64,000 bases of DNA from an uncultured Alphaproteobacteria bacterium (GCA_946625925.1 CAMOTP010000001.1:2770-66769); one strand, 5' to 3'; shown: positions 8,353 to 61,499, numbered from the stretch's first letter. Made by a program: numbers and translations. Notes: generated by a model not told the origin, from the sequence alone.

Positions 8353-11300
8353 ATGGCTAATTTAATTGTTGATGGTAATTGGGCTGCGGCAGATGTCGCG
8401 TATCGTTGTGTGGATTTTGCTGCAATTTATCCTATTACACCCAGTAGCACAATGGGCGAATTGGCGGATGCTTGGTCTTTTCAGCATAAAAAGAATATTT
8501 GGGGTGCGATTCCACAAATTATAGAAATGGAATCCGAAGGCGGTGCCGCTGGGGCAATGCATGGTGCATTGCAGATGGGAACATTGGCAACAACATTTAC
8601 CGCTTCCCAGGGGTTATTATTGATGATTCCAAACATGTATAAAATTGCAGGTGAACAAACGCCCTTTGTTATGCATGTTGCAGCACGTGCGTTGGCAACA
8701 CATGCGTTGTCTATATTTGGTGATCACAGTGATGTTATGTCTGTGCGTTCAACAGGTTTCGCAATGCTGTCCAGTCATAATGTTCAACAAGCACATGATT
8801 TGGCTGCGGTTGCGCATGCCGCGACATTGCGTGCACGTGTCCCATTTTTGCATTTTTTTGATGGGTTCCGTACCAGTCACGAAGAATCCAGATTATCAAG
8901 AATTGAAGATGATGTGTTGCGTAAGTTGATTCCTGATAATTTGGTGCTGGAAAATCGTGCGCGTGGTATGTCTCCTGAACATCCTACTATTCGTGGAACT
9001 GCGCAAAATCCCGATGTGTATTTCCAAGGACGTGAAGCAGTGAATCCTTTGTATCAAAATTTACCTGAAATTGTACAAAAGTGTATGGACGAATTGGCAG
9101 ATGCCACAGGTCGTTCGTATCATTTGGTTGATTATGTAGGTGATAAAAATGCAAAATTTGTTGTTGTTGCTATGGGCAGTGCATGTGAAACAATTGAAGA
9201 AACTTTGCCGTATTTACCAAAAAAATGTGGCTTGTTAAAAATTCATTTATTCCGTCCGTTCCCAACAGATGCGTTTTTATCAGTGTTGCCAAAAACGGTT
9301 AAACAAATTGCTGTTTTGGACAGAACAAAAGAACCGGGGGCAATCGGTGAACCGTTGTATCAAGATGTGGCCAGTATCGTGGACAAGGGTGTTTCTGTGT
9401 TTGGTGGACGTTATGGTTTGGGCAGTAAAGAATTTGCACCACGTGATGTCAAGGCTATTTATGAAAATATGATTATGGGAACATTGCATCATAATTTTAC
9501 TGTTGGTATTGAAGATGATTTGACGGGATTATCATTAAAAACAGATGCGATGTTTGCTATTGAAAATAAAGATGTTAAAACAGCATTGTTGTATGGAATC
9601 GGATCGGATGGAACAGTTGGTGCCGTTAAAAATATAGTAAAAATTGTGGGTGAAAATTCAGATTTGTATCCACAATCATATGCCGTTTATGATTCTAAGA
9701 AATCTGGTGGGTTGACGGCTTCACATATTCGTTTTTCAAATGCACCAATTAAAAGTCAATATTTGGTTGAAACGGCTGATTTTATTGGTGTGTCTAATTT
9801 TATGATTGCACAGCGGTTTGATGTTTTTCGTGCTTTGCGTGCTGGTGGAATTGTGATGATAAATACATCCAAAACCCCAGATGTTGCATTTGCAAATTTA
9901 CCACGTGAATCCCAAGAACAGTTGATGCGTTTGCGTGCACGTGTGTATTTCTTGGATGCAAATGCGGCAGCAGCAGAATTGGGGTTGGGAAATCGTATAA
10001 ACACATTCATTATGATTAATTTCTTTAATTTAATGAAAATTGTTGATCCTAAAATTGCGGCTGATGCAGCAAAAGATGCTATTGAAAAAACATATAAAAA
10101 GAAAGGTATGGATGTTGTTCAGGCTAATTGGGCAGCTGTGGATATGGCGTCTAAATATTTAACAGAATATAAATTGCCTTCCTCGGTTTCAAATTTTGCA
10201 CCTGACTTTATTCCTGCTATGACGGCTGATGCACCTGCCGAGATTGCAGGAACATTGGGCGAAATGGCATCTGGACGTGGTGATGATATTCCTGTGTCGC
10301 GTTTTCGTACAGGGGGATTGTTTGCCGCAGGACAGTATCCGGTTGGAACGTCTAAATATGAAAAACGTGGTATTTCGGAACGTGTTGCCAGTTGCGATTT
10401 ATCATTATGCGCACAATGTGGTAAATGTTCTATGTTGTGTCCACATGCGGCTATTCGTATCAAGGTTATGACAGAGAAAGAGGCCGAGGCAGCACGTGCA
10501 GATGGTGTTATTGTGGTACCTATGAAAACACCTGAATTGGGTGCCAATATGTATTATACATTAAATATTTCACCAGCAGATTGTACAGGGTGTTCTGTGT
10601 GTGTGAAAAATTGTCCTGTTCATGCGTTATCTATGGTTAATGCGGCCGATGATGTGGATGCACAAAAACGTTTTGATGCTGCACAGAAAATACCGGATAT
10701 TGCACGTGAAAAATTGAATTTGAATATACCAAAACATATTGAATTGTTACCGCATTATTTTGAATTTCCTGGTGCATGTGCGGGTTGCGGTGAAACACCA
10801 TATATAAAATTGTTGGCACATTTATTCGGGGATAGAATGATTGTTGCTAATGCGACGGGTTGTTCATCGATTTATGGTGCTAATTTACCGACAACGCCTT
10901 GGACAACAGATGCAGATGGTCGTGGACCAGCGTGGTCGAATTCTTTGTTCGAAGATAATGCAGAATATGGATTGGGAATGCGAATTGCTTTGAATCAAAG
11001 ACGCGATAATTTGTATAGTTTGTTGCGCGAGTTAGAAATTCCTGATGTTGATGAAATATTTGCAGAACAAGATATAACTAAACAACGGGAAAATGAAAAG
11101 AATTTACGCGAATATTTGGCAAAGAATAATAGTGATAGGGCACGATTAGCGGAAAGTTTGCTGGATGCTGTTGTTGATAAATCTTTGTGGATTGTTGGTG
11201 GTGATGGTTGGGCATATGATATCGGTTATGGTGGTTTGGATCATATTTTACATAGTGGTGAAAATGTAAATATATTGATTTTAGATACCGAAGGTTATTC

Positions 11301-16468: not shown

Positions 16469-17329
16469 ATGGAAACAAAAACAAATATTTTAACCCCGGA
16501 ACAATCATTTAGGCAACTTCGCCAAAATGGTTCTTTTGTTATACAAATGGCGCCAAATAACTGGCTGGTGACGGATTTTGCACCAGAATCTTGGGTATAC
16601 AATGTTTACAAACGTACATACAGTTATAAAATATTCAGAAATATGATAAATACTGATGAAAGTATTCAAGAATTTTGTATTATGGGTGATAATAGTATTC
16701 AAGAATTAAATAATTTTTTTCAAAATGTAAAACCAACTATATTTAATTTTGTAGGACGTCCTGGGGCAGGTAAAGGGACACATGGTGGACATTTTGCTGA
16801 AATTTATAAATTGCCTGTTGTAAAAACAGGGGAACTTATTCGTGCATCATATAAAGAATCAAATGCTACAATTACTGAATTAGCAAATAAATTTATTGAT
16901 GATGGTATTAATACTAATTCGGGCAAAAGTATTTGTTTAGATGGATATCCTCGTAATTTTATACAAAAAGACCATTTGTTATCTTATTTACCAAATTATA
17001 ATATATTTACGGTATTTTTGAACACGAACGAAGAGGAATGTTTAAAACGCATATCAAACAGACATGATAGCCATACAAGCGATCAAGACCAAGAAGCAAC
17101 CGAAAGACGTATGGAAAAATATGGTCAATATACGCGAAATGCTATTAAATCTATAAAAGAAGCGGCTTATAGTATTCGTGATATATATTATGCTGAAATT
17201 TCTATTGTACCTGGTGCCGAAAAAGATGTTAATTTTGGTCTGATGATGACTGGTTTAACCAAAGCTTTTAAAAATAAAATCAGTTGGATTGCACAACAAC
17301 AAATCCGAAATACTGATTTGCAAAAATAA
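16469..17329 (+). CDS. P-loop NMP-kinase (adenylate-kinase-like) paralog with ~90-aa N-terminal extension
   Basis: FVGRPGAGKGTHGG P-loop, ...TGELIRAS..., CLDGYPRN (DGFPR-like). Confidence 0.6.
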   Translation: METKTNILTPEQSFRQLRQNGSFVIQMAPNNWLVTDFAPESWVYNVYKRTYSYKIFRNMINTDESIQEFCIMGDNSIQELNNFFQNVKPTIFNFVGRPGAGKGTHGGHFAEIYKLPVVKTGELIRASYKESNATITELANKFIDDGINTNSGKSICLDGYPRNFIQKDHLLSYLPNYNIFTVFLNTNEEECLKRISNRHDSHTSDQDQEATERRMEKYGQYTRNAIKSIKEAAYSIRDIYYAEISIVPGAEKDVNFGLMMTGLTKAFKNKISWIAQQQIRNTDLQK

Positions 17330-17338
17330 AATCCATTA

Positions 17339-17362
17339 TCCCGACATTTTGTCGGGATTTTT
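17339..17362 (+). terminator. rho-independent terminator (copy 2 of CCCGACA..TGTCGGG hairpin)
   Basis: TCCCGACATTTTGTCGGGA followed by T5; near-identical to the hairpin at 16384. Confidence 0.7.
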
Positions 17363-17491
17363 ATATTTTTAACTTCTTTGACGTTTTTTTAAGGCTTGCA
17401 TCATTCTGCCGAATCTTACCATACCCACAACAAATACATATGGTAATTTAGTTCCTACTCTATATACCCTAAAAAATGTTAACTGTAAAAA

Positions 17492-18091
17492 TTATTTATA
17501 AATACATTTTTGTCTGTATCGAATAAAAGCCCCAGGATTTATTTTGGCAGCCTTTTTATTGGCCACAAATTCTTTAAACGATACAGGCATTACAAAAGGT
17601 GCTTTTTCATTGTACACAGAATCTAAAAACGCATCAAACTTTTCATCATATCTGATCATAGCATTCTCTAATTTATAGCATTTATCAGATAATATTTTTA
17701 TACGTTGTCCCATTCCATTTGTATCTATATCCGCCACATAATTAACAACAGAATCAATCTTGGTTTTATAATATTTAATAGAATCATAGTAACCGGCACT
17801 TTCCGTCATCAACTTTGCTTCTTTTGCAGAAAATCTTTCTATTACTGAATCAACAAATTTATCCCTGTGCTGAGTAAATTCTATATCTTGTGCTCTGTTA
17901 TCATTGCAAACAGAATCAAAATAAATTTTATATTGAGCTAAATCTTTCTTATGTTCTGCATAAGCCTTCGCATTAGCCTTTTTTAATTTTGCAAAATACA
18001 ATTCATCCTTTATCCATGTAACAGGAATCATTAACAATAAAGCCAATACTATAAACAATGCCAATTTTGCCTGAGATTTTTCGTCCATCAT
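17492..18091 (-). CDS. hypothetical membrane-anchored/secreted protein
   Basis: Internal start MMDEKSQAKLALFIVLALLLMIPVTW (one N-terminal TM or signal); no recognised domain. Confidence 0.4.
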   Translation of the reverse strand: MMDEKSQAKLALFIVLALLLMIPVTWIKDELYFAKLKKANAKAYAEHKKDLAQYKIYFDSVCNDNRAQDIEFTQHRDKFVDSVIERFSAKEAKLMTESAGYYDSIKYYKTKIDSVVNYVADIDTNGMGQRIKILSDKCYKLENAMIRYDEKFDAFLDSVYNEKAPFVMPVSFKEFVANKKAAKINPGAFIRYRQKCIYK

Positions 18092-18183
18092 ATAATCCTT
18101 TATATACACCAAATAATATACCCTAAAAACAAAAATGTCAACTATCAAAATAATTTTTATATATTTGATATTTTTTGACCGCA

Positions 18184-18192
18184 TGTTATAAT
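18184..18192 (+). promoter_or_regulatory. extended -10 element (TGtTATAAT) upstream of adk
   Basis: TGTTATAAT about 25 nt upstream of ATG 18217. Confidence 0.35.
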
Positions 18193-18216
18193 GTCCCAGC
18201 AAAACATGGAGAAAAG

Positions 18217-18795
18217 ATGAAAAACAAACTGATTTTAATGATGGGTGGTCAAGGATCCGGCAAAGGAACTTTGTCTAAGGCATTTTTAGCCGAACATGAC
18301 AATCAATATAATTATATTGAAACTGGTGCAATGTTGCGTGCTCTGCCTGAAAAACATCCGTTAAAAGCAATTATTGCACGTGGTGAATTTGTGCCGGATA
18401 CAGAGGTTTTTACATTATTAAAATCAAAAATAGATTCTGCTGGGGGGGATATTTTGTTGGATGGGTTTCCGCGTAAAGTGTCCCAGGCGGAATGGTTGGT
18501 TTCAACTTTTTCTGACAAATTTGATATAGTTGCGGTATATTTAAATTTGCCTGAATCTTTGATGTTGAAGCGTATTGAAAATCGTATTCGTGAGGGCGGT
18601 GGTCGTGCCGATGATGCGGATAGTGCGGCTGTGCGTCGTCGTTTGGATAATTTTCAGCATGAAACTATGCCAGCAATCAAATGGCTGAAAGGTAATGAAA
18701 AAGTGGTGTTCGTTGAGGTTGCTGTTGCAGATGCACCAGTGGAAGTGAATTATACAGCTTTAGTAGATGCGTTGAAGTCGAATAAAATTATATAA
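18217..18795 (+). CDS. adk: adenylate kinase, short type (no LID insertion)
   Basis: ILMMGGQGSGKGT P-loop, TGAMLRA, LLDGFPR, R..GR.DD; RBS GGAG; 192 aa. Confidence 0.8.
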   Translation: MKNKLILMMGGQGSGKGTLSKAFLAEHDNQYNYIETGAMLRALPEKHPLKAIIARGEFVPDTEVFTLLKSKIDSAGGDILLDGFPRKVSQAEWLVSTFSDKFDIVAVYLNLPESLMLKRIENRIREGGGRADDADSAAVRRRLDNFQHETMPAIKWLKGNEKVVFVEVAVADAPVEVNYTALVDALKSNKII

Positions 18796-18817
18796 ATTGA
18801 ATAAATGGAGAAACAGT

Positions 18818-19537
18818 ATGACAACAAACAGACAAAAACAAATTGAAAAGAATGAAGCGATAATCGCAAAATTAAAAAGACAAACAAAACCAACTATGGT
18901 AATTGTGTTGGGGGTCCAAGGTTGTGGTAAAGGAACACAATCAGAAATGTATTTAAGTGAACATTCTACACGCGTTAACTATATTGGTAAAAAAACCGTC
19001 AATTACTTAAACGATATTGAACGTCCAATTGAATTTAAATATATTGGTACGGGTGATTTGTTACGTTCACAACCAGAAAATTCACCAGAACGTAAAGCAA
19101 TCGACAAAGGTCATTTTGTCCCTGATTCCGTTATATTTAATTTATTGAATCAAACAATTACCACAGATGTAAATATATGGGGTGACGGTCTGGGGCGCAG
19201 TTTACAACAAGCAAAACAATTAGTTAAATCATATGGTCGCAGATTCAATATTGTTGCTGTCTATTTCAATATGCCTGAATCCCTGGTCGCAGAACGTATT
19301 GCACAACGTAATGCCATGGGTGCTGGACGTGCAGATGATGCAGATATGGCCGCTGTAAAAAAACGTGTAAGTACATTTAACCATGTCACAATGCCTGCAA
19401 TTAATTGGATGCGTGTTAACAAAAATGTTGTATTTACCGAAGTGCCAATTACAAACGATACACCAGATGTAAATTATCAAAAATTAAAAACTATTTTGAA
19501 TACAGCACTGGCACAAAATAATATAATACTGAAATAA
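18818..19537 (+). CDS. adenylate-kinase-like NMP kinase paralog
   Basis: VLGVQGCGKGT, TGDLLRS, GDGLGR replacing DGFPR; C-terminal block GRADDADMAAVKKRVSTFNHVTMPAINW parallels adk GRADDADSAAVRRRLDNFQHETMPAIKW. Confidence 0.65.
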   Translation: MTTNRQKQIEKNEAIIAKLKRQTKPTMVIVLGVQGCGKGTQSEMYLSEHSTRVNYIGKKTVNYLNDIERPIEFKYIGTGDLLRSQPENSPERKAIDKGHFVPDSVIFNLLNQTITTDVNIWGDGLGRSLQQAKQLVKSYGRRFNIVAVYFNMPESLVAERIAQRNAMGAGRADDADMAAVKKRVSTFNHVTMPAINWMRVNKNVVFTEVPITNDTPDVNYQKLKTILNTALAQNNIILK

Positions 19538-35351: not shown

Positions 35352-35702
35352 ATGTCTAAATTTTTGAAAGAAAAATGGAATAATGTTCGTGCCACAAAAC
35401 AAGCAAAAAAAGATGCGATATCGGAAATAAGCGTATTGTCGAGTACAGAATACGATGATGTCTGTATCCAAGATGTTATACAAACTGAACTGATGCAGCG
35501 GAACCCTGGTAATACAGAAATACCATTAGCATTGAGAAAATATTGCAAACATTTTGATGAAAAGCGCGTATGTGATAATGTGGATTGCCCTATGCATGAT
35601 AAAAATGAGCAATATATTGCAACACGTTTAGAATATAAACGGGCGCGAGGTGAATTTTTCAATATTCTATTTCATGGTCGTAAAAATTACTTTGATAAAT
35701 GA
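35352..35702 (+). CDS. hypothetical small protein (Cys/His-containing)
   Basis: 116-aa ORF between the rlmE-fragment duplicate and rlmE; CDNVDCPMHD segment. Confidence 0.4.
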   Translation: MSKFLKEKWNNVRATKQAKKDAISEISVLSSTEYDDVCIQDVIQTELMQRNPGNTEIPLALRKYCKHFDEKRVCDNVDCPMHDKNEQYIATRLEYKRARGEFFNILFHGRKNYFDK

Positions 35703-43714: not shown

Positions 43715-43791
43715 GCGAGCGTAGCTCAGTTGGCTAGAGCGCAACCTTGCCAAGGTTGAGGTCGAGGGTTCGAGCCCCTTTGCTCGCACCA
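43715..43791 (+). tRNA. tRNA-Gly (anticodon GCC)
   Basis: GCGAGCG acceptor, D-loop AGCTCAGTTGGCTAGAGC, anticodon loop TTGCCAA, GGTTCGAGCCC T-arm, ACCA 3' end. Confidence 0.9.
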
Positions 43792-43802
43792 GAATTTTAG
43801 AA

Positions 43803-43845
43803 AACACCCGTTTGGGTGTTTTTTTGATTCTGTCGACAAAGGGGT
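43803..43845 (+). repeat. terminator-like repeat copy 1 (ACACCC-N4-GGGTGT + T7 ... CAAAGGGG)
   Basis: ACACCCGTTTGGGTGTTTTTTT; shares stem and CAAAGGGG tail with copies at 43931 and 49123. Confidence 0.65.
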
Positions 43846-43930
43846 GAGAACCCGCAGGGTTGCGAGGCGAGGTTATGAAATAACCGAAGTACTTTGCGAA
43901 GCCCAAAGTTTTAACACCCGAAAGGGTGTT

Positions 43931-43967
43931 TTTTTATTGGCAAAGGGGCGATATCGGGCCCCGCAAA
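43931..43967 (+). repeat. terminator-like repeat copy 2 (left boundary of accessory segment)
   Basis: ACACCCGAAAGGGTGTTTTTTTATTGGCAAAGGGG. Confidence 0.65.
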
Positions 43968-44092
43968 ATTCTGAAATTTTGTGGGTGATTAGTTCCGCAG
44001 GATGGCGAAATGCTTTTTTGTCCAAAATTCTTGATATTTCAGTTTTTTTTGATATTTTTACTGTGGGTATAGTGATTAAAAAGGGTAATGAA

Positions 44093-44755
44093 ATGACAAG
44101 AAATGAAGTGTTATGTAAAGTTCTTGAAATTGTAAATGAGCATAAAGCACACAACTTTCCAGAAGCCACAGAGAACAGCCGGTTTGCCGAAGATTTGGGA
44201 ATGGATTCGTTTGATATAGTTGAAACTTGTTGGGATATACAACGCGTCTTATTAGATATTGATTTTGATTATGATGATTGGGATGCTATCAAATTTAATA
44301 CTACATCAGTTAAAGATGTGGTAAATTTAGTATGTAAAAATTTAAATATTCCGGTTAATAATGCCGAAAAAAAATCAAATCTGAAATTAAATATGTTATA
44401 CCCAATTATTGCGGGGTTGTTGTTTACGGGATGTGGTTTTGTTGAATGCAAGGACAATGTTGTTGTGGTGCCTGGAAAAAATAAAATCATTGTCAAAGAT
44501 GTCAAAGACGGTCAGGAAAGAATATTTTTTACAAATAAATCAGATAACCGTTTTCAGGGGCTGAATGTTGGTGATACCATCAACGTGCGCAGACGCAGAG
44601 GTTATGGTGATTATGATTATTATAGAGTTTTTGATGATGATAACAAGTATATCCATATTGATGTGAATGATTTACATGTTGTGCGAGAAAAATTTAGATT
44701 TGATTCTATTAAAAACGCGATGTTAAGGGACAGTGTTGCACAAAACAAAAGATAA
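44093..44755 (+). CDS. acyl-carrier-protein-like domain fused to a lipoprotein-like C-terminal domain
   Basis: N-terminal FAEDLGMDSFDIVE resembles the ACP phosphopantetheine-site DLGADSLD; internal MLYPIIAGLLFTGC lipobox-like segment in the same frame; RBS AAGGG before ATG 44093. Confidence 0.5.
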   Translation: MTRNEVLCKVLEIVNEHKAHNFPEATENSRFAEDLGMDSFDIVETCWDIQRVLLDIDFDYDDWDAIKFNTTSVKDVVNLVCKNLNIPVNNAEKKSNLKLNMLYPIIAGLLFTGCGFVECKDNVVVVPGKNKIIVKDVKDGQERIFFTNKSDNRFQGLNVGDTINVRRRRGYGDYDYYRVFDDDNKYIHIDVNDLHVVREKFRFDSIKNAMLRDSVAQNKR

Positions 44756-44770
44756 AAGGGGGTATAAGAT

Positions 44771-45100
44771 ATGAAACGCAAACAAATTCAATATGCGCAA
44801 CCATATAAAATTCGCAGTGTTCAAAGTGTTTTTAATGCGGATAATGGTGTTGCAGGATATGATGTAGAGGTTTGTTTTAACGGAACCACAAATATTCCAC
44901 AACCTCGTTGGGCGGATCCTGAAAATATCTATGCGTACCAAGATGTTAACGCGGGAACCAGTCGTGTGGTTTATTATTTCCCTTTTGTTGGACATGGTGT
45001 AATAAACTGGGGCAAGATTGCGGCAAAACATTGGTTCAGAAAAATGCTGAAACAAATGGGGACATGTGTTGTGTTTGACGCGCAGGGTAATCAAAGATAA
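44771..45100 (+). CDS. small hypothetical protein A of the tandem array
   Basis: 109 aa; preceded by junction motif AAAAGATAAAAGG; ends ...GNQR. Confidence 0.5.
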   Translation: MKRKQIQYAQPYKIRSVQSVFNADNGVAGYDVEVCFNGTTNIPQPRWADPENIYAYQDVNAGTSRVVYYFPFVGHGVINWGKIAAKHWFRKMLKQMGTCVVFDAQGNQR

Positions 45101-45111
45101 AAGGTAATAAA

Positions 45112-45450
45112 ATGTCTGAATGGGGTATTGAACAACACAGTACTTTTGGAAATGCCGGCGGTTGTTTTGTCGATTGTCTTTCTTGTGTTGGTGCAGTCGC
45201 GATTATTGTTGGATTGGCAACTATTGATAGCAAGCAAGATAAACCAAGAGCAAAAGATAAAGCGCAACCAAAAGTGGAATCTGTTGAACAAAATGCCGTT
45301 GCTATTCCTCGGGATACGGCGATGTTTGTTCCTGCAAATGATGCGGTCTTTCGTGATATAGAAAAGCAAAACGAATTTTTGTTGCAAAAAACCGCCCGCG
45401 AAATAAACGAAATCGACAGATTATCACGTATGCACAGCCACACAAGATAA
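45112..45450 (+). CDS. small hypothetical protein B of the tandem array (one predicted TM helix)
   Basis: 112 aa; hydrophobic CLSCVGAVAIIVGLATI; junction motif upstream. Confidence 0.5.
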   Translation: MSEWGIEQHSTFGNAGGCFVDCLSCVGAVAIIVGLATIDSKQDKPRAKDKAQPKVESVEQNAVAIPRDTAMFVPANDAVFRDIEKQNEFLLQKTAREINEIDRLSRMHSHTR

Positions 45451-45464
45451 AAAAGGAAACAATC

Positions 45465-45938
45465 ATGGCAGATATTCCAAATACAGAATACATTACAATT
45501 AACAAAGACGGAATTTTCGTTGGTGGAAAACCTGCAGAAACATATCGAGGTGAGGAAATATTGTTGCTGAATGGTGTGCAAAAAAATTTTGCAGATATCC
45601 AAAGATTAAATGAAACCGTTGCAGAATTGCATGTGTTGTCATCGGAAACACGTGGTGAATATGTCAAGGTGGGTAATCCATCAGGAAACCATGGCCAAAA
45701 TGCATGGTGTCGGGTAAAATTTAATGATGGGCGTGTTGCTTCGTGGGTGTTCTGCAACGCGTACAGTTCGGCGGCCAATTGTGCGTTCTACTGTGCGTAC
45801 GTCTGCGCGGGCAACGTTCGCGGGTTTGCGAACTTCCGTTCGGCGGTGTTGGGTGCGGTTGATAAAGAAAAAACACCACAAACACCAATAAACCCTGTTG
45901 TGGTTGCTGCAAACAACAACGCACAAAACAAAAGATAA
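45465..45938 (+). CDS. small hypothetical protein C of the tandem array (Cys-rich; paralog of E)
   Basis: 157 aa; shares YITINKD.FVGGKPA..YRG.EI...LSSETRGEY.VGNPS..HG.NAWCR.KFN.G.V..WVF with E; last 19 nt identical to the ACP-like gene end. Confidence 0.55.
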   Translation: MADIPNTEYITINKDGIFVGGKPAETYRGEEILLLNGVQKNFADIQRLNETVAELHVLSSETRGEYVKVGNPSGNHGQNAWCRVKFNDGRVASWVFCNAYSSAANCAFYCAYVCAGNVRGFANFRSAVLGAVDKEKTPQTPINPVVVAANNNAQNKR

Positions 45939-45950
45939 ACGGTTTATAAA

Positions 45951-46241
45951 ATGACAGAATCTGATATGACCCCAAATATAATTAAAAAGTTCGTAAAACG
46001 TATTACGTACGCACCTTATATATGCAAAATACCACGTCGTGGAATACAAGAAATAACATGTTATCCTGATGCAATAGTGCTTCACTTTAATGGAAAAAGA
46101 ATAGGATACTCTGAACGCGAAAAAACAATGATTGTTCTGCCGGGTGTTCGCGGAAAAGATGGTATATGTTCTGCTCAAACTGCTGTGGCAAACTATTTAT
46201 TACAAAAAAAGAAACGTGAACAAAAGATAAAAGGTTCGTAA
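45951..46241 (+). CDS. small hypothetical protein D of the tandem array
   Basis: 96 aa; junction motif variant AAAAGATAAACGG upstream. Confidence 0.45.
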   Translation: MTESDMTPNIIKKFVKRITYAPYICKIPRRGIQEITCYPDAIVLHFNGKRIGYSEREKTMIVLPGVRGKDGICSAQTAVANYLLQKKKREQKIKGS

Positions 46242-46242
46242 A

Positions 46243-46761
46243 ATGACAGATATTAAAAATACAGCATATATCACAATTAATAAAGATGATGTTTTTGTTG
46301 GTGGGAAACCGGCGATAAAATATCGTGGGGTAGAAATAGCGTGGACTGAATATTTATGGGAACATTTTGAAGCAATACAAAAAATGCATCCAGATATTAT
46401 GGAAATGCACGCCCTATCATCAGAAACACGTGGTGAATATTGCGTGGTTGGTAACCCGTCGGCAAAACACGGTTACAACGCATGGTGTCGTGCAAAATTT
46501 AATAATGGACATGTTTCCCCATGGGTGTTTGTTAGAGAGTGTGATTCAATGGATGAATGCGCAAGTCGTTGTGCATATCAAAGTCTGGATGGCTTTCGTA
46601 TTTCTGCACAAATGCGTTCTGCTGCTTTGGGGACACCAGATCATTTGATAAAGGTATTAAAAGACGTGGATTTATCTAACTGTGTTGGGAAACCTGTGCA
46701 ATTAAACGGTTATAAAATCATTGTTGAAAAAATTGCTGAAACACAACAAATCAAAAGATAA
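46243..46761 (+). CDS. small hypothetical protein E of the tandem array (paralog of C)
   Basis: 172 aa; see C. Confidence 0.55.
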   Translation: MTDIKNTAYITINKDDVFVGGKPAIKYRGVEIAWTEYLWEHFEAIQKMHPDIMEMHALSSETRGEYCVVGNPSAKHGYNAWCRAKFNNGHVSPWVFVRECDSMDECASRCAYQSLDGFRISAQMRSAALGTPDHLIKVLKDVDLSNCVGKPVQLNGYKIIVEKIAETQQIKR

Positions 46762-46774
46762 AAAGGGAAATAAA

Positions 46775-47146
46775 ATGTCTGGTTCATACAGTGTGTTTGA
46801 CGAAAATGGACACTATAAACCTGGAACTTATAATAACGGTTATGGGGCAAAGATAGGGTGGCCAACAGAAAAATATTCTAAACATGATGCCGGTGCTTTA
46901 GATAATCAATCCGGCAAAAAATCTGGTGGTGGTATCGGTATTGAATATGATTTTTTTGTTGTTTTTTGTTGTGCAGCAATTTTTTTGACCACTGTTATCT
47001 GTGTTGGTAATCCATTTGTTTGTGAACATAAAGATAATAAAAAAACAGAAAATACAAAAAATGTTGATAAAGTCAGTCATGATGAAAAATATAATAAATC
47101 AACATTGTTTATAACTTCTTGGGCATTAAATCAGAAAATTAAATGA
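46775..47146 (+). CDS. small hypothetical protein F of the tandem array (one predicted TM helix)
   Basis: Start MSGSYSVF after AAAAGATAAAAAGGG; hydrophobic FFVVFCCAAIFLTTVICV. Confidence 0.5.
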   Translation: MSGSYSVFDENGHYKPGTYNNGYGAKIGWPTEKYSKHDAGALDNQSGKKSGGGIGIEYDFFVVFCCAAIFLTTVICVGNPFVCEHKDNKKTENTKNVDKVSHDEKYNKSTLFITSWALNQKIK

Positions 47147-47161
47147 TAAAAAGGCAAACAA

Positions 47162-47500
47162 ATGTCAGGGGATTTTTATTGCATTATCGAACACGAACCA
47201 ATTGAAATACCGGTTGCAACAGTGACTGTTCCGCGGACAAAGCATAAAGAAAGTAAAGATAATGCATCACATAGTGGTGATGATTTTTCTTGTCCTTATG
47301 ATTTAAAATATTGTGTCGAAACGATAAATGCGTATCAAAAATTTGAAGAACGTGTTAGGAATGCTTTTGAAACAGGCAGTGAAGAATTGATTTTTCAACA
47401 AGATGGTTTTAGTGTTGATTGTCCACCGTGTGATGATGTGATGCGTGCGAATTGTGCGCGTTATAAAATTTGGTGCAAAGCGCAATGTAAACAAAAATAA
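47162..47500 (+). CDS. small hypothetical Cys-rich protein G of the tandem array
   Basis: 112 aa, 9 Cys incl. CPPCDD; junction variant AAATGATAAAAAGG upstream. Confidence 0.5.
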   Translation: MSGDFYCIIEHEPIEIPVATVTVPRTKHKESKDNASHSGDDFSCPYDLKYCVETINAYQKFEERVRNAFETGSEELIFQQDGFSVDCPPCDDVMRANCARYKIWCKAQCKQK

Positions 47501-47502
47501 AG

Positions 47503-47527
47503 AACCGGTCCATTTGGGCGGTTTTTT
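47503..47527 (+). terminator. rho-independent terminator ending the small-ORF array
   Basis: AACCGGTCCATTTGGGCGGTT + T6. Confidence 0.65.
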
Positions 47528-47543
47528 ATTATAATAATAATTA

Positions 47544-47571
47544 TTGACAATATTTTATTTTGTCTTATAAT
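47544..47571 (+). promoter_or_regulatory. sigma70-like promoter (TTGACA-16-TATAAT)
   Basis: TTGACA 47544-49, TATAAT 47566-71, ~30 nt upstream of ORF 47602. Confidence 0.4.
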
Positions 47572-47601: not shown

Positions 47602-47850
47602 ATGCAAAATAAATCTAGAAAAAGAATATTAAACAATAATACTCGTGATTGGTTGGCGTGTTTATTTGGTAGCGCAGGATTTATAGCGGTTTTATTGGCT
47701 GCTGGGACTGATGATTATCGTTTCAGTTCTGAATATAATCCTGAAAAAGATAAAATCGCCAGTACAGAAACCACCACAGCGATGGCATTGGGGGGAACGG
47801 CGGCATTGTTGGGCGCAACAATTTTGTTGGCAGGCAAGAAAGAATATTAA
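47602..47850 (+). CDS. small two-TM membrane protein (holin-like topology)
   Basis: 82 aa; two hydrophobic helices (LACLFGSAGFIAVLLAAG, MALGGTAALLGATILLAG); charged C-terminus. Confidence 0.45.
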   Translation: MQNKSRKRILNNNTRDWLACLFGSAGFIAVLLAAGTDDYRFSSEYNPEKDKIASTETTTAMALGGTAALLGATILLAGKKEY

Positions 47851-47874
47851 TCCAGATAATTACAGGGGGGTATC

Positions 47875-48336
47875 ATGGCAAGTACAGGTGCTATTACATC
47901 GCAGTATGTAAATTTCATCGGAAACGAAGTTGTCAATAAATTTGGTGGTTCTTACCAGACATATGAAAGTATGGGCAGATTGTGGCGTCAAAAAATGGAT
48001 TATAATCCAAAAGTTGAAGAATTTGCTGTTTCGCAATCTAAATTATTTTTAAGACTGTTGGATATTCGTGACCAAGGCAACTTTAATATGATGTATAAAG
48101 TTTGCTATAACATCGCAGAATATTTGTCAAAATATATTGTCAAAAAATCGCCAGAGTTAACCAGAGCAAAGGTTACAGATACATTGTTAGACGAGTTGTT
48201 TTTGCATTCTGACAGATTTGTTGCGAAATTTAACAAGGCTTATAAACGCCCGATTGATATGTCTGATACTAATTATGTGACATATAATCCAGGGGTTATT
48301 GCGATGTATAAAGCTATACATGGTACGCAACATTAA
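47875..48336 (+). CDS. hypothetical protein
   Basis: 153-aa ORF, no recognised domain. Confidence 0.4.
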   Translation: MASTGAITSQYVNFIGNEVVNKFGGSYQTYESMGRLWRQKMDYNPKVEEFAVSQSKLFLRLLDIRDQGNFNMMYKVCYNIAEYLSKYIVKKSPELTRAKVTDTLLDELFLHSDRFVAKFNKAYKRPIDMSDTNYVTYNPGVIAMYKAIHGTQH

Positions 48337-48349
48337 AAGGGATTTATTG

Positions 48350-49120
48350 ATGAGAACGTTTAATAACAAAGGCGTTTATGAATCACCATTTAAATATGAT
48401 CGTGATTTCAAGGTCAGAGTACGTTGTGATGGACTCGATTTACCAGAATATTGTGGCAATTGGAATCAGGCGGGTCATATTATTCCATATCCAGAAACTT
48501 TACAAACATATATTTTCCCACTTATAAGATCTGCGGGGCTGGGTGAAGATGGATTGCAATTCGAACGCGAATATATTGTAAGCAGTAAAAGACGCGGATT
48601 ATTATATCGTGGTGTTAGTAATTTGTTGAGGGCTTTGGATGATATGCCATCGCGTTCGTGGTCTGGAAATGGTTTAAGTTTTGGTGCACATTATCGTATC
48701 AAAAATGCCAAAGACTATGAAATTTTTCATGCAAAGATGCTTTATGATGATGGACCATATGGTGAAATAGAATTCGAAGTTGAATATTATGATTCAACTG
48801 CTTTGAAATATCGTTATGGTTGGCGCTGTTGGGATGATGAGAAATTTGTCTATGACCTGGATTATGCTGCGATGGATGCAACCACAGATATATTTGGTGT
48901 TTTAGAAAATGCAAAAACACGTTATCGTCCATCAAGTGTATTTTTTGACGTCGCTTCTTATATGCAAACTCCAAGATTTATGCGTCCACGCGGCAGTTTT
49001 TTAATTCCGTTATTGCCTGGCTCTAATGGGTTAGCGTCGCGCAGGGTGCGTCGTGTATTACACAAAATGAATTATTTGTGTGCGAAATACGAGTGGAATA
49101 AATATAATCAAGGTAGATAA
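48350..49120 (+). CDS. hypothetical protein
   Basis: 257 aa from internal ATG (MRTFNNKG) with AAAAGG RBS; no recognised domain. Confidence 0.45.
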   Translation: MRTFNNKGVYESPFKYDRDFKVRVRCDGLDLPEYCGNWNQAGHIIPYPETLQTYIFPLIRSAGLGEDGLQFEREYIVSSKRRGLLYRGVSNLLRALDDMPSRSWSGNGLSFGAHYRIKNAKDYEIFHAKMLYDDGPYGEIEFEVEYYDSTALKYRYGWRCWDDEKFVYDLDYAAMDATTDIFGVLENAKTRYRPSSVFFDVASYMQTPRFMRPRGSFLIPLLPGSNGLASRRVRRVLHKMNYLCAKYEWNKYNQGR

Positions 49121-55536: not shown

Positions 55537-56196
55537 ATGAATTCAACATGGAAAGCAAGACGAATTGAACGTAGAGACGATGTCAACGCAATACAAGAAG
55601 TATTGGATGTACTGAATCGTATGAATACATCCGTGAATGTTACAGACGGAAAATATATTATTATGCAAAATGGTAAAAAAAGATATGAAATAACTATGTT
55701 TGATTATGATGCTACAATTCGTGCGTTTGATGGTGATACACCTGGTGCAGTTCGTTGCGTTTTAGGCGAGGGTATTGTTCCAAAGGCAAAGTTATGGTTG
55801 TTAAGATTTGAATTAGAAAGTGCGACCATTTCGGGACCTTTTGAAAAATTAGCTGATAAGGCAAGATCTTTTCAATCTGATGTTAAATTAATAAATAAAA
55901 TTTTGACTGTTTTAATGCGTGATGATACACAGGTTTGTATTAATCATGAGACAAATGTTATGAAAAGGTATGAAATATTGTACAACATGAATAATCAAGA
56001 TTATAGATTGATTGTTGAATATAATGGTTCTTTGGTAAAATTTGCTGAAAACGGTGTTGATACAATGATTGATGCCAATGGCTATATAGGCTGGAAATTA
56101 GGTGTTTTGCGTAAAGAGTTAGATAAAAAAATGACACCACATGTTTCATTGATGACACGTTTAACACAAAAATTGAAAAATCGTCAATATCAATAA
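55537..56196 (+). CDS. hypothetical protein
   Basis: 220 aa from ATG with AAAAGGA RBS; no recognised domain. Confidence 0.4.
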   Translation: MNSTWKARRIERRDDVNAIQEVLDVLNRMNTSVNVTDGKYIIMQNGKKRYEITMFDYDATIRAFDGDTPGAVRCVLGEGIVPKAKLWLLRFELESATISGPFEKLADKARSFQSDVKLINKILTVLMRDDTQVCINHETNVMKRYEILYNMNNQDYRLIVEYNGSLVKFAENGVDTMIDANGYIGWKLGVLRKELDKKMTPHVSLMTRLTQKLKNRQYQ

Positions 56197-56342: not shown

Positions 56343-56975
56343 ATGGCAAGAGCTGGTGCAAAACGTAGCACACGTAAATTGAAAATCGCTCGTTCTTTGG
56401 GCGTTAACTTGTGGGGACAAGCAAAATCTCCATTTAATAAACGTAAATATAAACCTGGCCAACATGGTCCAACATCTCGTGGTGGTAATAATTCTGCTTA
56501 TGCACAACAGATGCGTGCAAAACAGACTTTGAAAGGTTATTATGGTAATATCGGCGAAAAAAAGTTCCATAAATATTATGCCGAAGCTGATAATATGAAA
56601 GGCGACACACCTGATAATTTGATTGGTTTGCTTGAACGTCGTTTGGATGCTGTTGTGTATCGTGCAAAATTGGCGCCAACAGTATTCTCTTCACGTCAAT
56701 TGATTAACCATGGGCATATTATGGTTAATGGCAAACGTGTCAAGATTCCATCATATCGTGTGAATCCGGGTGATGTTATCACAGTTAGTGAAAAAGCAAA
56801 ACAGATGCCATTGGTCGTGTTGGCTTTGGAATCTGGTGAACGTAATTTCTGTGATTATGTTAATGTGGATAGTGCAAACTTTACAGCGACATTTGTTCGT
56901 GTTCCTGCGTTTGCAGACGTTCCATATCCTGTTCAAATGTCACCAGAATTGGTCGTCGAATTCTATTCTCGTTAA
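56343..56975 (+). CDS. rpsD: 30S ribosomal protein S4
   Basis: MARAGAKRSTRKLKIARSLG..., PGQHG, S4 domain LERRLDAVVYR. Confidence 0.95.
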   Translation: MARAGAKRSTRKLKIARSLGVNLWGQAKSPFNKRKYKPGQHGPTSRGGNNSAYAQQMRAKQTLKGYYGNIGEKKFHKYYAEADNMKGDTPDNLIGLLERRLDAVVYRAKLAPTVFSSRQLINHGHIMVNGKRVKIPSYRVNPGDVITVSEKAKQMPLVVLALESGERNFCDYVNVDSANFTATFVRVPAFADVPYPVQMSPELVVEFYSR

Positions 56976-57021: not shown

Positions 57022-57984
57022 TTATTCTTTTATATCATCGTTTATATCATCGTTTGGATCGTGCTTGGCAAATGGATGGGCATGTGCGTAAATATTATTA
57101 ATTTCTGCCATATTTACCTTGGTGTAAAGTTGGGTTGTTGATAATGATGCGTGCCCTAATAATTCTTGTAAGCTTCGTAAATCTGCACCATGTGATAACA
57201 ATGCGGTTGCAAATGTATGTCGCAGGGCGTGAGGGGTCACATAATCAGGCAACTGTAAATATGCGCGCAGTTTTTCAACAGTTTTTTCTGCCATGCGTGC
57301 AGACATAGGTAATCCTTTGACACTGCGAAATAATGGTTTGTCTGGAACAGGGGGATATGGGCATGTTGCCAAATATTTTGCAATTGCTTCATTTACGGCT
57401 GGTAATACGGGAACAATGCGTTCTTTTTTCCCTTTGCCGATGATGTGTAAAATATCTGGAGCATTTTTTACATCTTGGACTGTTAAAGATAAAGCCTCGG
57501 ATATACGTAATCCGCATCCAAATAAAAGTGTTACCAAGGCCCAATCCCTGGTTGCCACCCATGGATTTTTTTCATCAATAGCGGTTAATGCTGATTTCAT
57601 ATCTGCAACATCAGTGCTTTCGATTGCTTTTGATAATTTTCGTGGAACTTTTGGTGATGATATTAAACTGATAGCCTCATTTTGAATATCATATTTTTTA
57701 GCAATAAATTTATAAAAACTGCGCAATGATGACAATGCACGTGCAGTAGATTTGTGTTCCAGGTTTCTGCGTGCGCGATCTGCCAACCAGGCGCGAAAAG
57801 CAATTGTGTCAATCTGGGACAAATCATTTGGTAATAATTCTGAATTGGACCAACGTGTATAAAAATTCAAGAAATCATGGATATCCGTTTCATAGGCTGT
57901 TGCTGTATGTATAGAATATTGTTTCGTATTCAATAAATAATCTATAAAATCGGCGATGATTTCTTTCATTTTATCTGATTTCAA
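57022..57984 (-). CDS. tyrosine site-specific recombinase, XerC/XerD family
   Basis: R..HxxR..Y catalytic arrangement (HALRHTFAT, LGHASLSTTQLYT); unusual acidic C-terminal tail PNDDINDDIKE. Confidence 0.85.
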   Translation of the reverse strand: MKSDKMKEIIADFIDYLLNTKQYSIHTATAYETDIHDFLNFYTRWSNSELLPNDLSQIDTIAFRAWLADRARRNLEHKSTARALSSLRSFYKFIAKKYDIQNEAISLISSPKVPRKLSKAIESTDVADMKSALTAIDEKNPWVATRDWALVTLLFGCGLRISEALSLTVQDVKNAPDILHIIGKGKKERIVPVLPAVNEAIAKYLATCPYPPVPDKPLFRSVKGLPMSARMAEKTVEKLRAYLQLPDYVTPHALRHTFATALLSHGADLRSLQELLGHASLSTTQLYTKVNMAEINNIYAHAHPFAKHDPNDDINDDIKE

Positions 57985-60182: not shown

Positions 60183-61499
60183 ATGTCTAAAATAAGAACG
60201 CATATCGCCGAAATTCCACAAAAAATTGGCGAAACAATAACTTTAATGGGTCACGCGCAAACAATACGCGAACAGTCCGCTGTTGTGTTTATTGTGCTGC
60301 GTGAAATCACCGGAACTGTTCAATGCGTTATTGAACGTGGAACAGTGGCATGGGATGTTGTAAAACAAATAACAACAGAATCCGTTATTTCTGTAACTGG
60401 TACTGTTGTGAAAACAAAAAGTACAGAAAGTGGATTTGAAATCCATGTGTCTGAAATTAAAATTTTGTCGTTGGCCGAAGCAACACCGATTCCAGTTACG
60501 CAAAAAGGCAGCACCGAAGTTACACCTGAAAAATCGCAAGATTGGCGTTTTTTGTCATTACGTAGTCCACGCGGTGCAACAATTATGCGTGCGTTTTCTG
60601 CAATGACGGCTGGGTATCACGAATACTTGTCCAAGCAAGGTTTTATAGAAATTCAGACACCAAAGATTATGGCAACACCATCTGAATCGCGTGCTGAATT
60701 GTTCAAATTAGAATACTTTGGTCAAACAGCATATCTGGCGCAATCGCCACAATTATTCAAACAAATGGCAATTGCATCTGGGCTGGAACGTGTGTTCGAA
60801 GTTGCACCAGCATTTCGTGCAGATAAATCTTTCACAACACGTCATGCAACAGAATTCACTTCTTTCGATGGTGAAATGGCGTATATCGAAAGTTTTGAAG
60901 AAGTAATGCAAGAACTGGAACAAGCAATTCGTTATATGTTGACAGCGATTAAAAAAGAATGTGGCGCAGAAATTAAAAAGTATTTTGGTGTTGAAGAAAT
61001 ACAATTAAAGAAACCCATCCCGCGTATAACAATGGCGCGTGCCAAAGAAATTCTTCGTGAAATGGGCGCTGCATCCGAAGAGCCAGACATTACAACCGCC
61101 GAAGAAAAGGCGTTGGGCGAATATGTCAAAGAACACTTTGGTTCTGATTTCGTTTTTGTAACCCAATGGCCGTGGGAGGCGCGTCCGTTTTATCACAAGA
61201 AAGGTGTTGGCGAACATGGTGAACCAATATCTGTGTCGGCTGACTTGCTGTACAAAGGTGTTGAAATTGTGACATGTGCACAACGTGAAGAATCCTATGA
61301 AAAACTGTGTGAACAGTTGCGCGAAAAAGGATTGCACCAAGAAGGTTTGCAATGGTATTTGGAATGTTTCAGATATGGTATGCCACCACATGGCGGTTGG
61401 GGTTTTGGCGGTGCACGTTTTATAAAACAGTTGCTGGAATTGCCAACAATTAGGGAAGCAATGTTTTTATTCCGTGGACCAACAAGATTAATGCCATAA
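60183..61499 (+). CDS. aspS: aspartyl-tRNA synthetase, archaeal/eukaryal-type (class IIb; possibly non-discriminating) - AsnRS not excluded
   Basis: 438 aa; motif-2 region FRADKSFTTRHATEFTSFDGEMAYIESFEEVM parallels archaeal AspRS FRAEEHNTTRHLNE...SEMAFIEDEEEVM; strong AAAGGAGG RBS. Confidence 0.7.
   Translation: MSKIRTHIAEIPQKIGETITLMGHAQTIREQSAVVFIVLREITGTVQCVIERGTVAWDVVKQITTESVISVTGTVVKTKSTESGFEIHVSEIKILSLAEATPIPVTQKGSTEVTPEKSQDWRFLSLRSPRGATIMRAFSAMTAGYHEYLSKQGFIEIQTPKIMATPSESRAELFKLEYFGQTAYLAQSPQLFKQMAIASGLERVFEVAPAFRADKSFTTRHATEFTSFDGEMAYIESFEEVMQELEQAIRYMLTAIKKECGAEIKKYFGVEEIQLKKPIPRITMARAKEILREMGAASEEPDITTAEEKALGEYVKEHFGSDFVFVTQWPWEARPFYHKKGVGEHGEPISVSADLLYKGVEIVTCAQREESYEKLCEQLREKGLHQEGLQWYLECFRYGMPPHGGWGFGGARFIKQLLELPTIREAMFLFRGPTRLMP

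Follow-up and report, generated by a model that had tools for sequence, protein, structure and literature searches.

How do short and mostly unrelated genes come to be joined, one after another, by nearly the same few nucleotides? The question is raised by a locus in a 64,000-nucleotide (nt) stretch of DNA from an uncultured Alphaproteobacteria bacterium (GCA_946625925.1, CAMOTP010000001.1:2770-66769), hereafter the window, in which positions 44093-47500 of the plus strand hold one co-oriented, operon-like array of eight tightly packed small genes (g0 and cassettes A to G). The linker between these genes, CAAAAGATAAAAGG, comprises the tail of one gene, its stop codon, and a Shine-Dalgarno sequence. 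An earlier description made from the sequence alone (the sequence-only reading) had seen seven small open reading frames (ORFs) joined by this element and had proposed that the junction is a unit of recombination or duplication rather than a generic ribosome-binding site (RBS). Working with the 82.9-kb metagenome scaffold that contains the window and with 20-kb pieces of DNA from relatives, we favor general or microhomology-mediated recombination together with translational coupling at a portable cassette linker, and give this reading a probability of roughly 60%.

The array opens with g0 (44093-44755, 220 aa), an in-frame fusion of an ACP-like and a LIPO part that belongs to the same unit as the genes behind it. 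It is followed by cassettes A (44771-45100, 109 aa), B (45112-45450, 112 aa), C (45465-45938, 157 aa), D (45951-46241, 96 aa), E (46243-46761, 172 aa), F (46775-47146, 123 aa), and G (47162-47500, 112 aa), the last gene of the array. The same-strand arrangement was thus as first described, with eight genes in the unit once the ACP-like g0 is counted. From g0 to G the intergenic gaps measure 15, 11, 14, 12, 1, 13, and 15 nt, so the reported spacing of 10-15 nt holds for six of them (11-15 nt) but not for D/E (1 nt). Cassette D does not stop inside the element, as had been thought, but reads it in another frame as CAA AAG ATA AAA GGT TCG TAA (protein end ..QKIKGS-TAA), which places its real stop 1 nt before the ATG of E. 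The proposed paralogy of C and E was borne out (54% identity over 133 aa), and no paralogue of the remaining array genes was found within the window.

The element has four parts, namely A-rich final codons, AGA, TAA, and AAGG, with the next ATG 7-10 nt further on. All seven copies in the array are on the plus strand. Junction 1 (g0/A, 44738-44770) reads CAAAACAAAAGA TAA AAGGGGGTATAAGAT, junction 2 (A/B, 45088-45111) reads AATCAAAGA TAA AAGGTAATAAA, and junction 6 (E/F, 46742-46774) reads CACAACAAATCAAAAGA TAA AAAGGGAAATAAA. Junction 3 (B/C, 45439-45464; CACACAAGA TAA AAAAGGAAACAATC) is deviant, and in junction 4 (C/D, 45921-45950; GCACAAAACAAAAGA TAA ACGGTTTATAAA) ACGG stands as a weakened Shine-Dalgarno sequence. 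The claim that every junction carries the consensus therefore fails for these two copies (ACAAGATAAAAAAGG and ..GATAAACGG, respectively). At junction 5 (D/E, 46217-46242; GAACAAAAGATAAAAGGTTCGTAAA) the DNA is kept with the TAA outside the frame of D, and junction 7 (F/G, 47136-47161; AAATTAAA TGA TAAAAAGGCAAACAA) shows the A-to-T change noted before, with F ending in Ile-Lys-TGA. A Lys-Arg-stop ending was found in g0, C, and E, but A ends in Gln-Arg, B in Thr-Arg, and D is out of frame. The 19 nt said to be common to the ends of g0 and C are indeed identical (GCACAAAACAAAAGATAAA). The pattern AAWGATAAAMRG occurs seven times in the window against 0.18 expected; six of these matches are array junctions, and the seventh (35698) lies at the end of a solo cassette from an array family. 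The pattern AAAGATAAA occurs 14 times against 1.9 expected. Among 57 other gene ends in the window AGA TAA was found at three and the full element at none, in line with its reported absence from the other junctions.

We then compared the element across loci in a non-redundant set of 40 sequences totaling 702 kb, made up of the window and 39 loci, with genes that we called ourselves. Endings in AGA-TAA or AGA-TAG were found in 56 of 97 array-family genes, whereas among the 442 other genes 150 aa or longer there were 20 (Fisher p = 1e-32). Few Arg residues are encoded by AGA, a minor codon (11% in other genes, 20% in the bodies of array genes); where the terminal residue is Arg, it is encoded by AGA in 57 of 69 cases in arrays versus 20 of 58 elsewhere. 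The consensus of 35 junctions from seven loci is ..AACAAAAcAAAAGATAAAAaGg (also written ..gaaacacAACAAAAcAAAAGATAAAAaGg), with a spacing of mostly 12-14 nt and with AGA plus TAA or TAG at 33 of the 35. None of 40 control junctions, including the adjacent rpsB-tsf junction, resembles the element, and of the matches to a strict form of the motif in the 702 kb (both strands), 29 lay at the ends of array genes and 11 elsewhere. The claim that this is something other than a generic stop plus RBS is upheld by the motif's absence from the control junctions and from the 57 window gene ends.

The conservation is one of nucleotides and goes beyond the peptide. Across three coding states the motif AAGATAAA(A)GG is kept: in frame, where it gives (K/Q/T)-R-stop; read through in another frame (D in the window and the X213 gene of locus L002, ..QKIKG.); and wholly downstream of an earlier stop (twice in L175 and once in L178). 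At one tail codon, single-nucleotide steps among ATC, AAC, AAT, and ATA swap Ile and Asn between E orthologues that are 85-88% identical. The tail variant tracks the array and not the gene family, being AAC in five of five cases in L009 and AAT in three of three in the second array of L006 (L006b); two LIPO2 paralogues of the same genome, 90% identical, lie in different arrays, one with ATC and one with AAT. Since the spacer after AAGG matches the type of the downstream cassette, the shared core is the joint between two cassettes. The exact motif is restricted to one subclade, whereas the arrays themselves are wider; species further removed carry arrays or lone C/E genes whose tails are different but likewise basic and A-rich (..KQR, ..QKQK).

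Junctions also stand out in their predicted RNA structure. From -35 to +20, junction-linked starts have a mean predicted folding energy of -1.8 kcal/mol, compared at equal GC content with -4.3 for other closely spaced genes (p = 1e-5) and -5.6 for other starts (p = 1e-8). The 35 nt upstream of these starts are 60% A, and few regions of these genomes are predicted to be as unstructured as the junctions. These values fit an unstructured initiation region, a role which would account for the preference for AGA, CAA, and AAA codons.

Homologues of E were found only in metagenomes and in rumen and gut metagenome-assembled genomes (MAGs) named Candidatus Enterousia, Alphaproteobacteria, or proteobacterium. 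Candidatus Enterousia belongs to the order Rs-D84 and has genomes mostly below 1 Mb, and this lineage has been proposed to be an obligate symbiont or parasite of other cells (PMC12306168). In the literature we found general genome descriptions of Candidatus Enterousia and Rs-D84 and no account of these arrays. On related Candidatus Enterousia contigs the same junction links arrays of 4-12 genes, located at different chromosomal sites: 12 genes upstream of rpsB in L003, seven upstream of rpsB and six more between tsf and tyrS in L006, and further arrays in L002, L009, L012, L013, L175, and L178. About 12 unrelated families (ACP, LIPO/LIPO2, A, B, C/E, D, F, G, PYV, X272, X213, X112, and X95) recur in differing order, copy number, and locus. 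The window has g0-A-B-C-D-E-F-G, L178 has LIPO-A-B-G'-E-X267-PYV (with A 89% and E 91% identical to the window), L009 has C-g0-B-E-D-C', and L013 has ACP·CEc-A-B-E'-..-X97-F. At one fixed locus, between a helix-turn-helix gene and a DNA-alkylation-repair gene, L002 holds E-X213-PYV-A versus A alone in L181; the flanks are 94% and 91% identical, the edges of the indel lie at the first ATG and at a junction, and the L002 insertion sits at the head of the array, adjoining the leader. Orthologues of cassette A are 82% (L013), 89% (L178), and 75% (L002) identical to the window copy, and the tail SHTR of cassette B is kept in three species. The variation in cassette number and order that the sequence-only reading had suggested looking for was therefore found, and the shared families in varying order, number, and locus support its proposal of a cassette array of diversifying small proteins.

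The head of the array is likewise shared, by three species. A conserved, non-coding leader (43936-44092, plus strand) carries a Shine-Dalgarno sequence and a promoter-like site of the sigma-70 type (44031-44058: TTGATA, a 16-nt spacer, and TATTTT, with TG upstream). The leader (about 170 nt) is approximately 90% identical in L009 (8320-8477) and L033 (6660-6810), and the 186-nt leader block (43913-44098) precedes a different first cassette in each case: g0 in the window, C in L009, and G in L033. Cassette G of the window is 89% identical to L033 6811-7149, which lies directly behind the same leader.

Blocks of nucleotide homology (blastn) end at junctions, which supports the proposed role of the junction in recombination or duplication. 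Other breakpoints lie in the conserved 5' coding sequence of C/E paralogues (window 45601 versus L013) and at microhomologies, an example being the exact loss of the ACP part in L178 (MTRN|AEKK). With breakpoints in coding 5' ends and at microhomologies, general recombination fits better than a site-specific system. Fusions were found in g0 (ACP and LIPO), in P0024 and L013 8855 (ACP and the C-terminal module of E), and in P0015, and they arise by junction loss. Cassette F is a chimera whose first 33 aa match the F family (L013 12306, L006 7101) and whose last 22 aa match the tail of L013 12002. We also observed that the gene at 621-1025 of L178, when compared with g0, has the ACP domain exactly deleted at an AATG microhomology, leaving a normal lipoprotein-like gene.

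Cassette orthologues have ratios of nonsynonymous to synonymous divergence (dN/dS) of 0.26-0.61 versus 0.02-0.11 for core genes. In related genomes the ORFs are unbroken and show purifying selection, the opposite of the decay that the sequence-only reading had named as a refuting outcome. Judged from these comparisons, the cassettes are real genes under relaxed constraint. Synonymous divergence (pS) between the window and the MAG CAMHTQ is 0.10-0.32 for cassettes and 0.37-0.69 for 11 core genes. Cassette G compared with RUG13375 gave 0.16 (core genes, 0.53-0.72), and F in CAMOGA compared with RUG13827 gave 0.15 (core genes, 0.51-0.62). Cassette pS far below that of core genes, together with the roughly 90% identity of the leader block, indicates recent exchange of cassettes or blocks between species.

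In the reading that we prefer, the linker would act twice. In a polycistronic mRNA it would end one cistron and supply the next with a Shine-Dalgarno sequence in an unstructured, A-rich initiation region, so that any cassette, in any order, behind the single leader promoter would be translated. In DNA, the identical 13-25 nt core and the conserved 5' gene ends would form a homology patch between arrays and between species, at which cassettes may be gained, lost, duplicated, fused, and exchanged without a dedicated recombinase; exchange at this patch would also keep the junctions alike (concerted evolution). Several points weigh on the other side. The core, at 13-25 nt, offers little length for RecA-type recombination, we identified no recombination enzyme, and the exact conservation of the sequence exceeds what an unstructured A-rich region needs. 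The association of tail variant with array is based on few arrays, and we infer both the single transcript and the translational coupling. Lys/Arg tails are also kept by genes at the end of an array and by distant species without the nucleotide motif, so the basic C-terminus may have a role at the protein level. Some core genes also show low pS between certain MAGs, so recombination between species is not unique to the arrays, and MAG chimerism may have a share in the low pS values.

Other explanations bear on parts of the same evidence. We give next to no credence to the idea that the element is simply this organism's usual stop and RBS or that the array is decaying, non-functional DNA. TAA is the commonest stop, and A-rich ends and AAGG-type Shine-Dalgarno sequences are common in a 37% GC genome, but the generic explanation is ruled out by the 40 control junctions and the 57 window gene ends without the element and by the status of AGA as a minor codon. 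Pseudogenes are ruled out by the dN/dS values and the orthologues that are intact across species. It is unlikely, though less so, that the conserved part is a C-terminal peptide (..ETQQIKR or ..AQNKR, with its basic end) serving as a sorting, secretion, or stability signal, with the likeness in DNA as a by-product. Arg or Lys does end 84 of the 97 array-family proteins, and tails that are both basic and polar are also seen in distant species and on terminal genes, which have no cistron behind them. The C-terminal module CEc (~38 aa) is found on differing N-termini (E, ACP in P0024, and a lipoprotein signal in P0015), and positively charged C-termini are type IV secretion signals in other Alphaproteobacteria. 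Against a peptide signal stand a motif retained out of frame and in non-coding positions, the use of a minor codon for 57 of 69 terminal Arg residues, conservation that continues past the stop into the spacer, and an Ile/Asn swap at one tail position. Disorder is also predicted for the tail (predicted local distance difference test score 46 over the final residues of E, 37 for A). The 83-kb scaffold showed no secretion system, and type IV secretion genes were seen neither there nor in the 20-kb pieces of relatives. A processing or regulatory site in the RNA, where endoribonuclease cleavage or protein binding would separate or co-regulate cistrons, is less probable still. Conservation at the nucleotide level and independent of reading frame would suit it, as would a single-stranded, A/U-rich region of the kind preferred by RNase E/Y-type enzymes and a GAUAA conserved beyond the needs of a Shine-Dalgarno sequence. 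Yet the element has no match in Rfam, and such a site alone leaves the rearrangement breakpoints at junctions unexplained.

The remaining rival concerns the recombination itself. The junction could be a site of dedicated site-specific recombination, making the arrays an integron-like capture platform whose core site doubles as stop and RBS; for the Enterousia group this would mean that the stop/RBS core of ~13 nt is the crossover site of dedicated machinery, an integron analogue without IntI or attC that would keep up a mobile pool of small accessory genes common to several species. We consider both the general and the group-specific form of this proposal unlikely. In its favor are the indels of whole cassettes with edges at a junction or first ATG, the co-oriented and apparently promoterless cassettes behind a conserved leader with a promoter-like site, a cassette content as heterogeneous as that of integrons, the exchange of cassettes between species, and the L002 insertion at the array head. 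Against it, no tyrosine or serine recombinase adjoins any inspected array, and the Pfam lists of flanking genes for the window, L003, L006, L175, and L181 contain no integrase beside the arrays; the window's sole Phage_integrase gene, on the minus strand at 57022-57984, lies 9.5 kb from the array and is of the Xer-like type. No attC-type inverted repeat was found at any junction, and the junction has no inverted-repeat or hairpin potential. Breakpoints also fall in coding 5' ends (45601 versus L013) and at microhomologies, and the sequence motif is limited to one subclade whereas the arrays are wider. Recombination at a portable linker by general means remains the reading that we prefer to a dedicated system.

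The proteins themselves gave few clues to function. Nothing was recognized among the array proteins with Pfam, PHROGs, NCBIfam, and PADLOC save a weak, divergent ACP-like domain in g0, so the statement that A to G match no known family holds. No toxin, immunity, or defense family was matched by g0, A to G, or two downstream genes in the same four resources, and a profile search against PDB sequences returned no matches. A weak Pfam match of cassette A to the P3 capsid C-terminal domain was not upheld by fold search and was dropped. The ACP-like domain of g0 (residues 1-95, with an LGMDSFD motif) reached E = 9e-8 and 32 bits with NCBIfam ACP models (cut-offs 65-146) and E = 0.13 with Pfam PP-binding; the related fusions P0059 and P0075 score above the Pfam PP-binding cut-off (43 and 30 bits versus 20.8). 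The LIPO part of g0, which ends in AQNKR-TAA, has a lipobox-like LLFTGC followed by a beta-rich domain. In g0 this LLFTGC lies ~100 aa from the N-terminus, behind the ACP domain, and in L003 6285-6668 and L178 621-1025 the LIPO domain is a separate gene with the signal at the N-terminus. As had been predicted, B and F have one hydrophobic (transmembrane, TM) helix each and G is Cys-rich; one hydrophobic helix is also predicted in LIPO2, and PYV and X112 are likewise Cys-rich. The C/E family, of which C (tail NNNAQNKR) lacks the C-terminal module, comprises 481 representatives at 50% identity (E <= 1e-3), some with 2-5 tandem copies and some fused to ACP domains; it has no Pfam model and no structural neighbor. 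We do not take the fusions of ACP and C/E as a functional link, as junction loss between neighboring cassettes explains them equally well. In its heterogeneity the content resembles cassette platforms more than a single-function operon, and our guess is that these proteins are an accessory, fast-evolving set for the partner-dependent lifestyle of the lineage. The C/E family was absent from IMG/VR, INPHARED phages, and PLSDB plasmids, and an origin from a phage, plasmid, or virus was rejected on this ground; the junction 19-mer had only seven single matches in IMG/VR. In a metagenome scan for this 19-mer, array families were found at 9 of 120 loci among the matches listed. The scan was dominated by an unrelated dispersed repeat: we observed CAAAAYAAAAGATAAAAGG also within a highly repeated element (..CACACCAAACACAACAACATAGCAAAGGTTATATACAAATATGGA-19mer-GAAAAGGGAACATAAATAAAG..) on many short contigs among L053-L132 (Ga0315911 and Ga0056114), where the repeats are probably eukaryotic.

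Several observations concern the surroundings of the array. Upstream of it lies a tRNA-Gly gene (43715-43791), with a terminator hairpin, AACACCCGTTTGGGTGTTTTTTT (43803-43825), just 3' of it. A near-identical hairpin, AACACCCGAAAGGGTGTTTTTTT (43913-43935, plus strand), follows 110 nt later as the left edge of the block held in common with arrays of other species, including L009, and the duplication may be a scar of recombination at the left end of the array as a whole. At the far side of the array the 3' end of tRNA-Gly is not directly repeated, the duplicated hairpin being all that was found, and the tRNA gene was rejected as an integration site for want of an att-like repeat across the array. 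The leader upstream of the promoter-like site contains GC-rich hairpins (GGGGC..GCCCC and CAAAATT..AAATTTTG; folding z-score -2.66) and could be a regulatory RNA or a protein-binding region. A known RNA element was dropped as a candidate, given that Rfam searches of the whole window (gathering threshold) and of the leader (permissive E-value) yielded only tRNAs and noise. Directly after G comes an imperfect terminator-like hairpin with a T-run (AACCGGTCCATTTGGGCGGTTTTTT, 47503-47530, plus strand), then a perfect-consensus promoter (47544-47571) for the next operon (47602-49120). This operon encodes proteins of 82 aa (double-TM), 153 aa, and 256 aa that match no known family and are not linked by the junction; in the nearest relative the 153-aa protein has only 50% identity, against 80-95% for the core genes on either side.

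The solo cassette mentioned above (35352-35702, plus strand) is 51% identical to an array gene, L006 6685-7023. It has AAATGATAAAAAG at its stop and a degenerate junction, AAACAAAATAAAAGGAGT, upstream, as though 7 nt had dropped out between TAAAAG repeats, and it looks like a cassette stranded outside any array. L003 and L004, which carry the same array in different samples, differ by one nucleotide in 13.2 kb, at position 10644; the change turns a junction stop from TAA to AAA and extends an A-family gene, and it may reflect either genuine microevolution or a sequencing error in a homopolymer. Elsewhere in the window, core genes at 60183-61499, 55537-56196, and 56343-56975 have pS of 0.09-0.26 relative to the MAG RUG11963 (L014), with neighbors at ~0.55, which suggests either recombination of core genes between species or a chimeric MAG. 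Three adenylate-kinase or AAA_17-type genes (Pfam; 286, 192, and 239 aa) with one minus-strand gene between them lie at ~16469-19537, a triplication that is unusual in a reduced genome.

Reduced genomes are expected to hold little mobile accessory content, but here each genome has several loci with 4-12 small, fast-evolving genes, which pass from species to species. The genome may vary chiefly at these loci, and the genes they carry are obvious candidates for interaction with a partner or host cell. One short sequence that supplied termination, re-initiation, and a recombination joint would be a natural plug-and-play operon linker, and a dedicated recombination mechanism, if true, would define a new class of cassette system. 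A separate description is warranted for the C/E domain family, and the arrays could be used as strain markers for uncultured gut and rumen Rs-D84 bacteria.

Among known systems, the arrays resemble integron arrays, super-integrons, and clusters of attC sites lacking integrases (CALIN) in having small, co-oriented, apparently mostly promoterless ORFs of heterogeneous function with a conserved repeat after each. As in integrons, close relatives differ in how many cassettes they have and in what order, and different species have cassettes in common; the leader at the head may likewise supply a common promoter. Unlike integrons, they have no IntI, and the repeat is 13-25 nt long, compared with 57-141 bp for the imperfect inverted repeats (hairpins) of attC; it overlaps the last codons, stop, and Shine-Dalgarno sequence, some breakpoints lie in coding homology, and the host has a genome below 1 Mb and is thought to depend on a partner. 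In the orphan toxin/immunity arrays of contact-dependent inhibition (CDI), Rhs, and MafB systems, short conserved coding motifs (e.g., VENN) are recombination joints. The likeness lies in tandem modules, a short conserved coding motif that permits homologous swapping, rapid turnover, and horizontal movement; here, however, the motif is at gene 3' ends and includes the stop and RBS, the cassettes are apparently complete, translatable genes, and no toxin-delivery gene flanks any array. In Borrelia, vls cassettes have 17-bp repeats at their boundaries and silent segments of one family are copied into an expression site. Short direct repeats at boundaries, concerted evolution, diversification, and a host-associated small genome are common to both, whereas the arrays described here draw on about 12 unrelated families that, from their arrangement, all appear to be expressed in one operon. 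Finally, ordinary translationally coupled operons share a stop closely before a Shine-Dalgarno sequence and ATG, at a spacing of mostly 12-14 nt, but in these arrays one sequence is reused between unrelated genes, loci, and species, and rpsB-tsf and the other controls share none of it. What stands, well beyond the window itself, is a lineage-specific and shuffling cassette array, probably an operon, whose junction, as we read it, is an element of the nucleotide sequence that combines a stop, a Shine-Dalgarno sequence, an unstructured leader, and a recombination joint.

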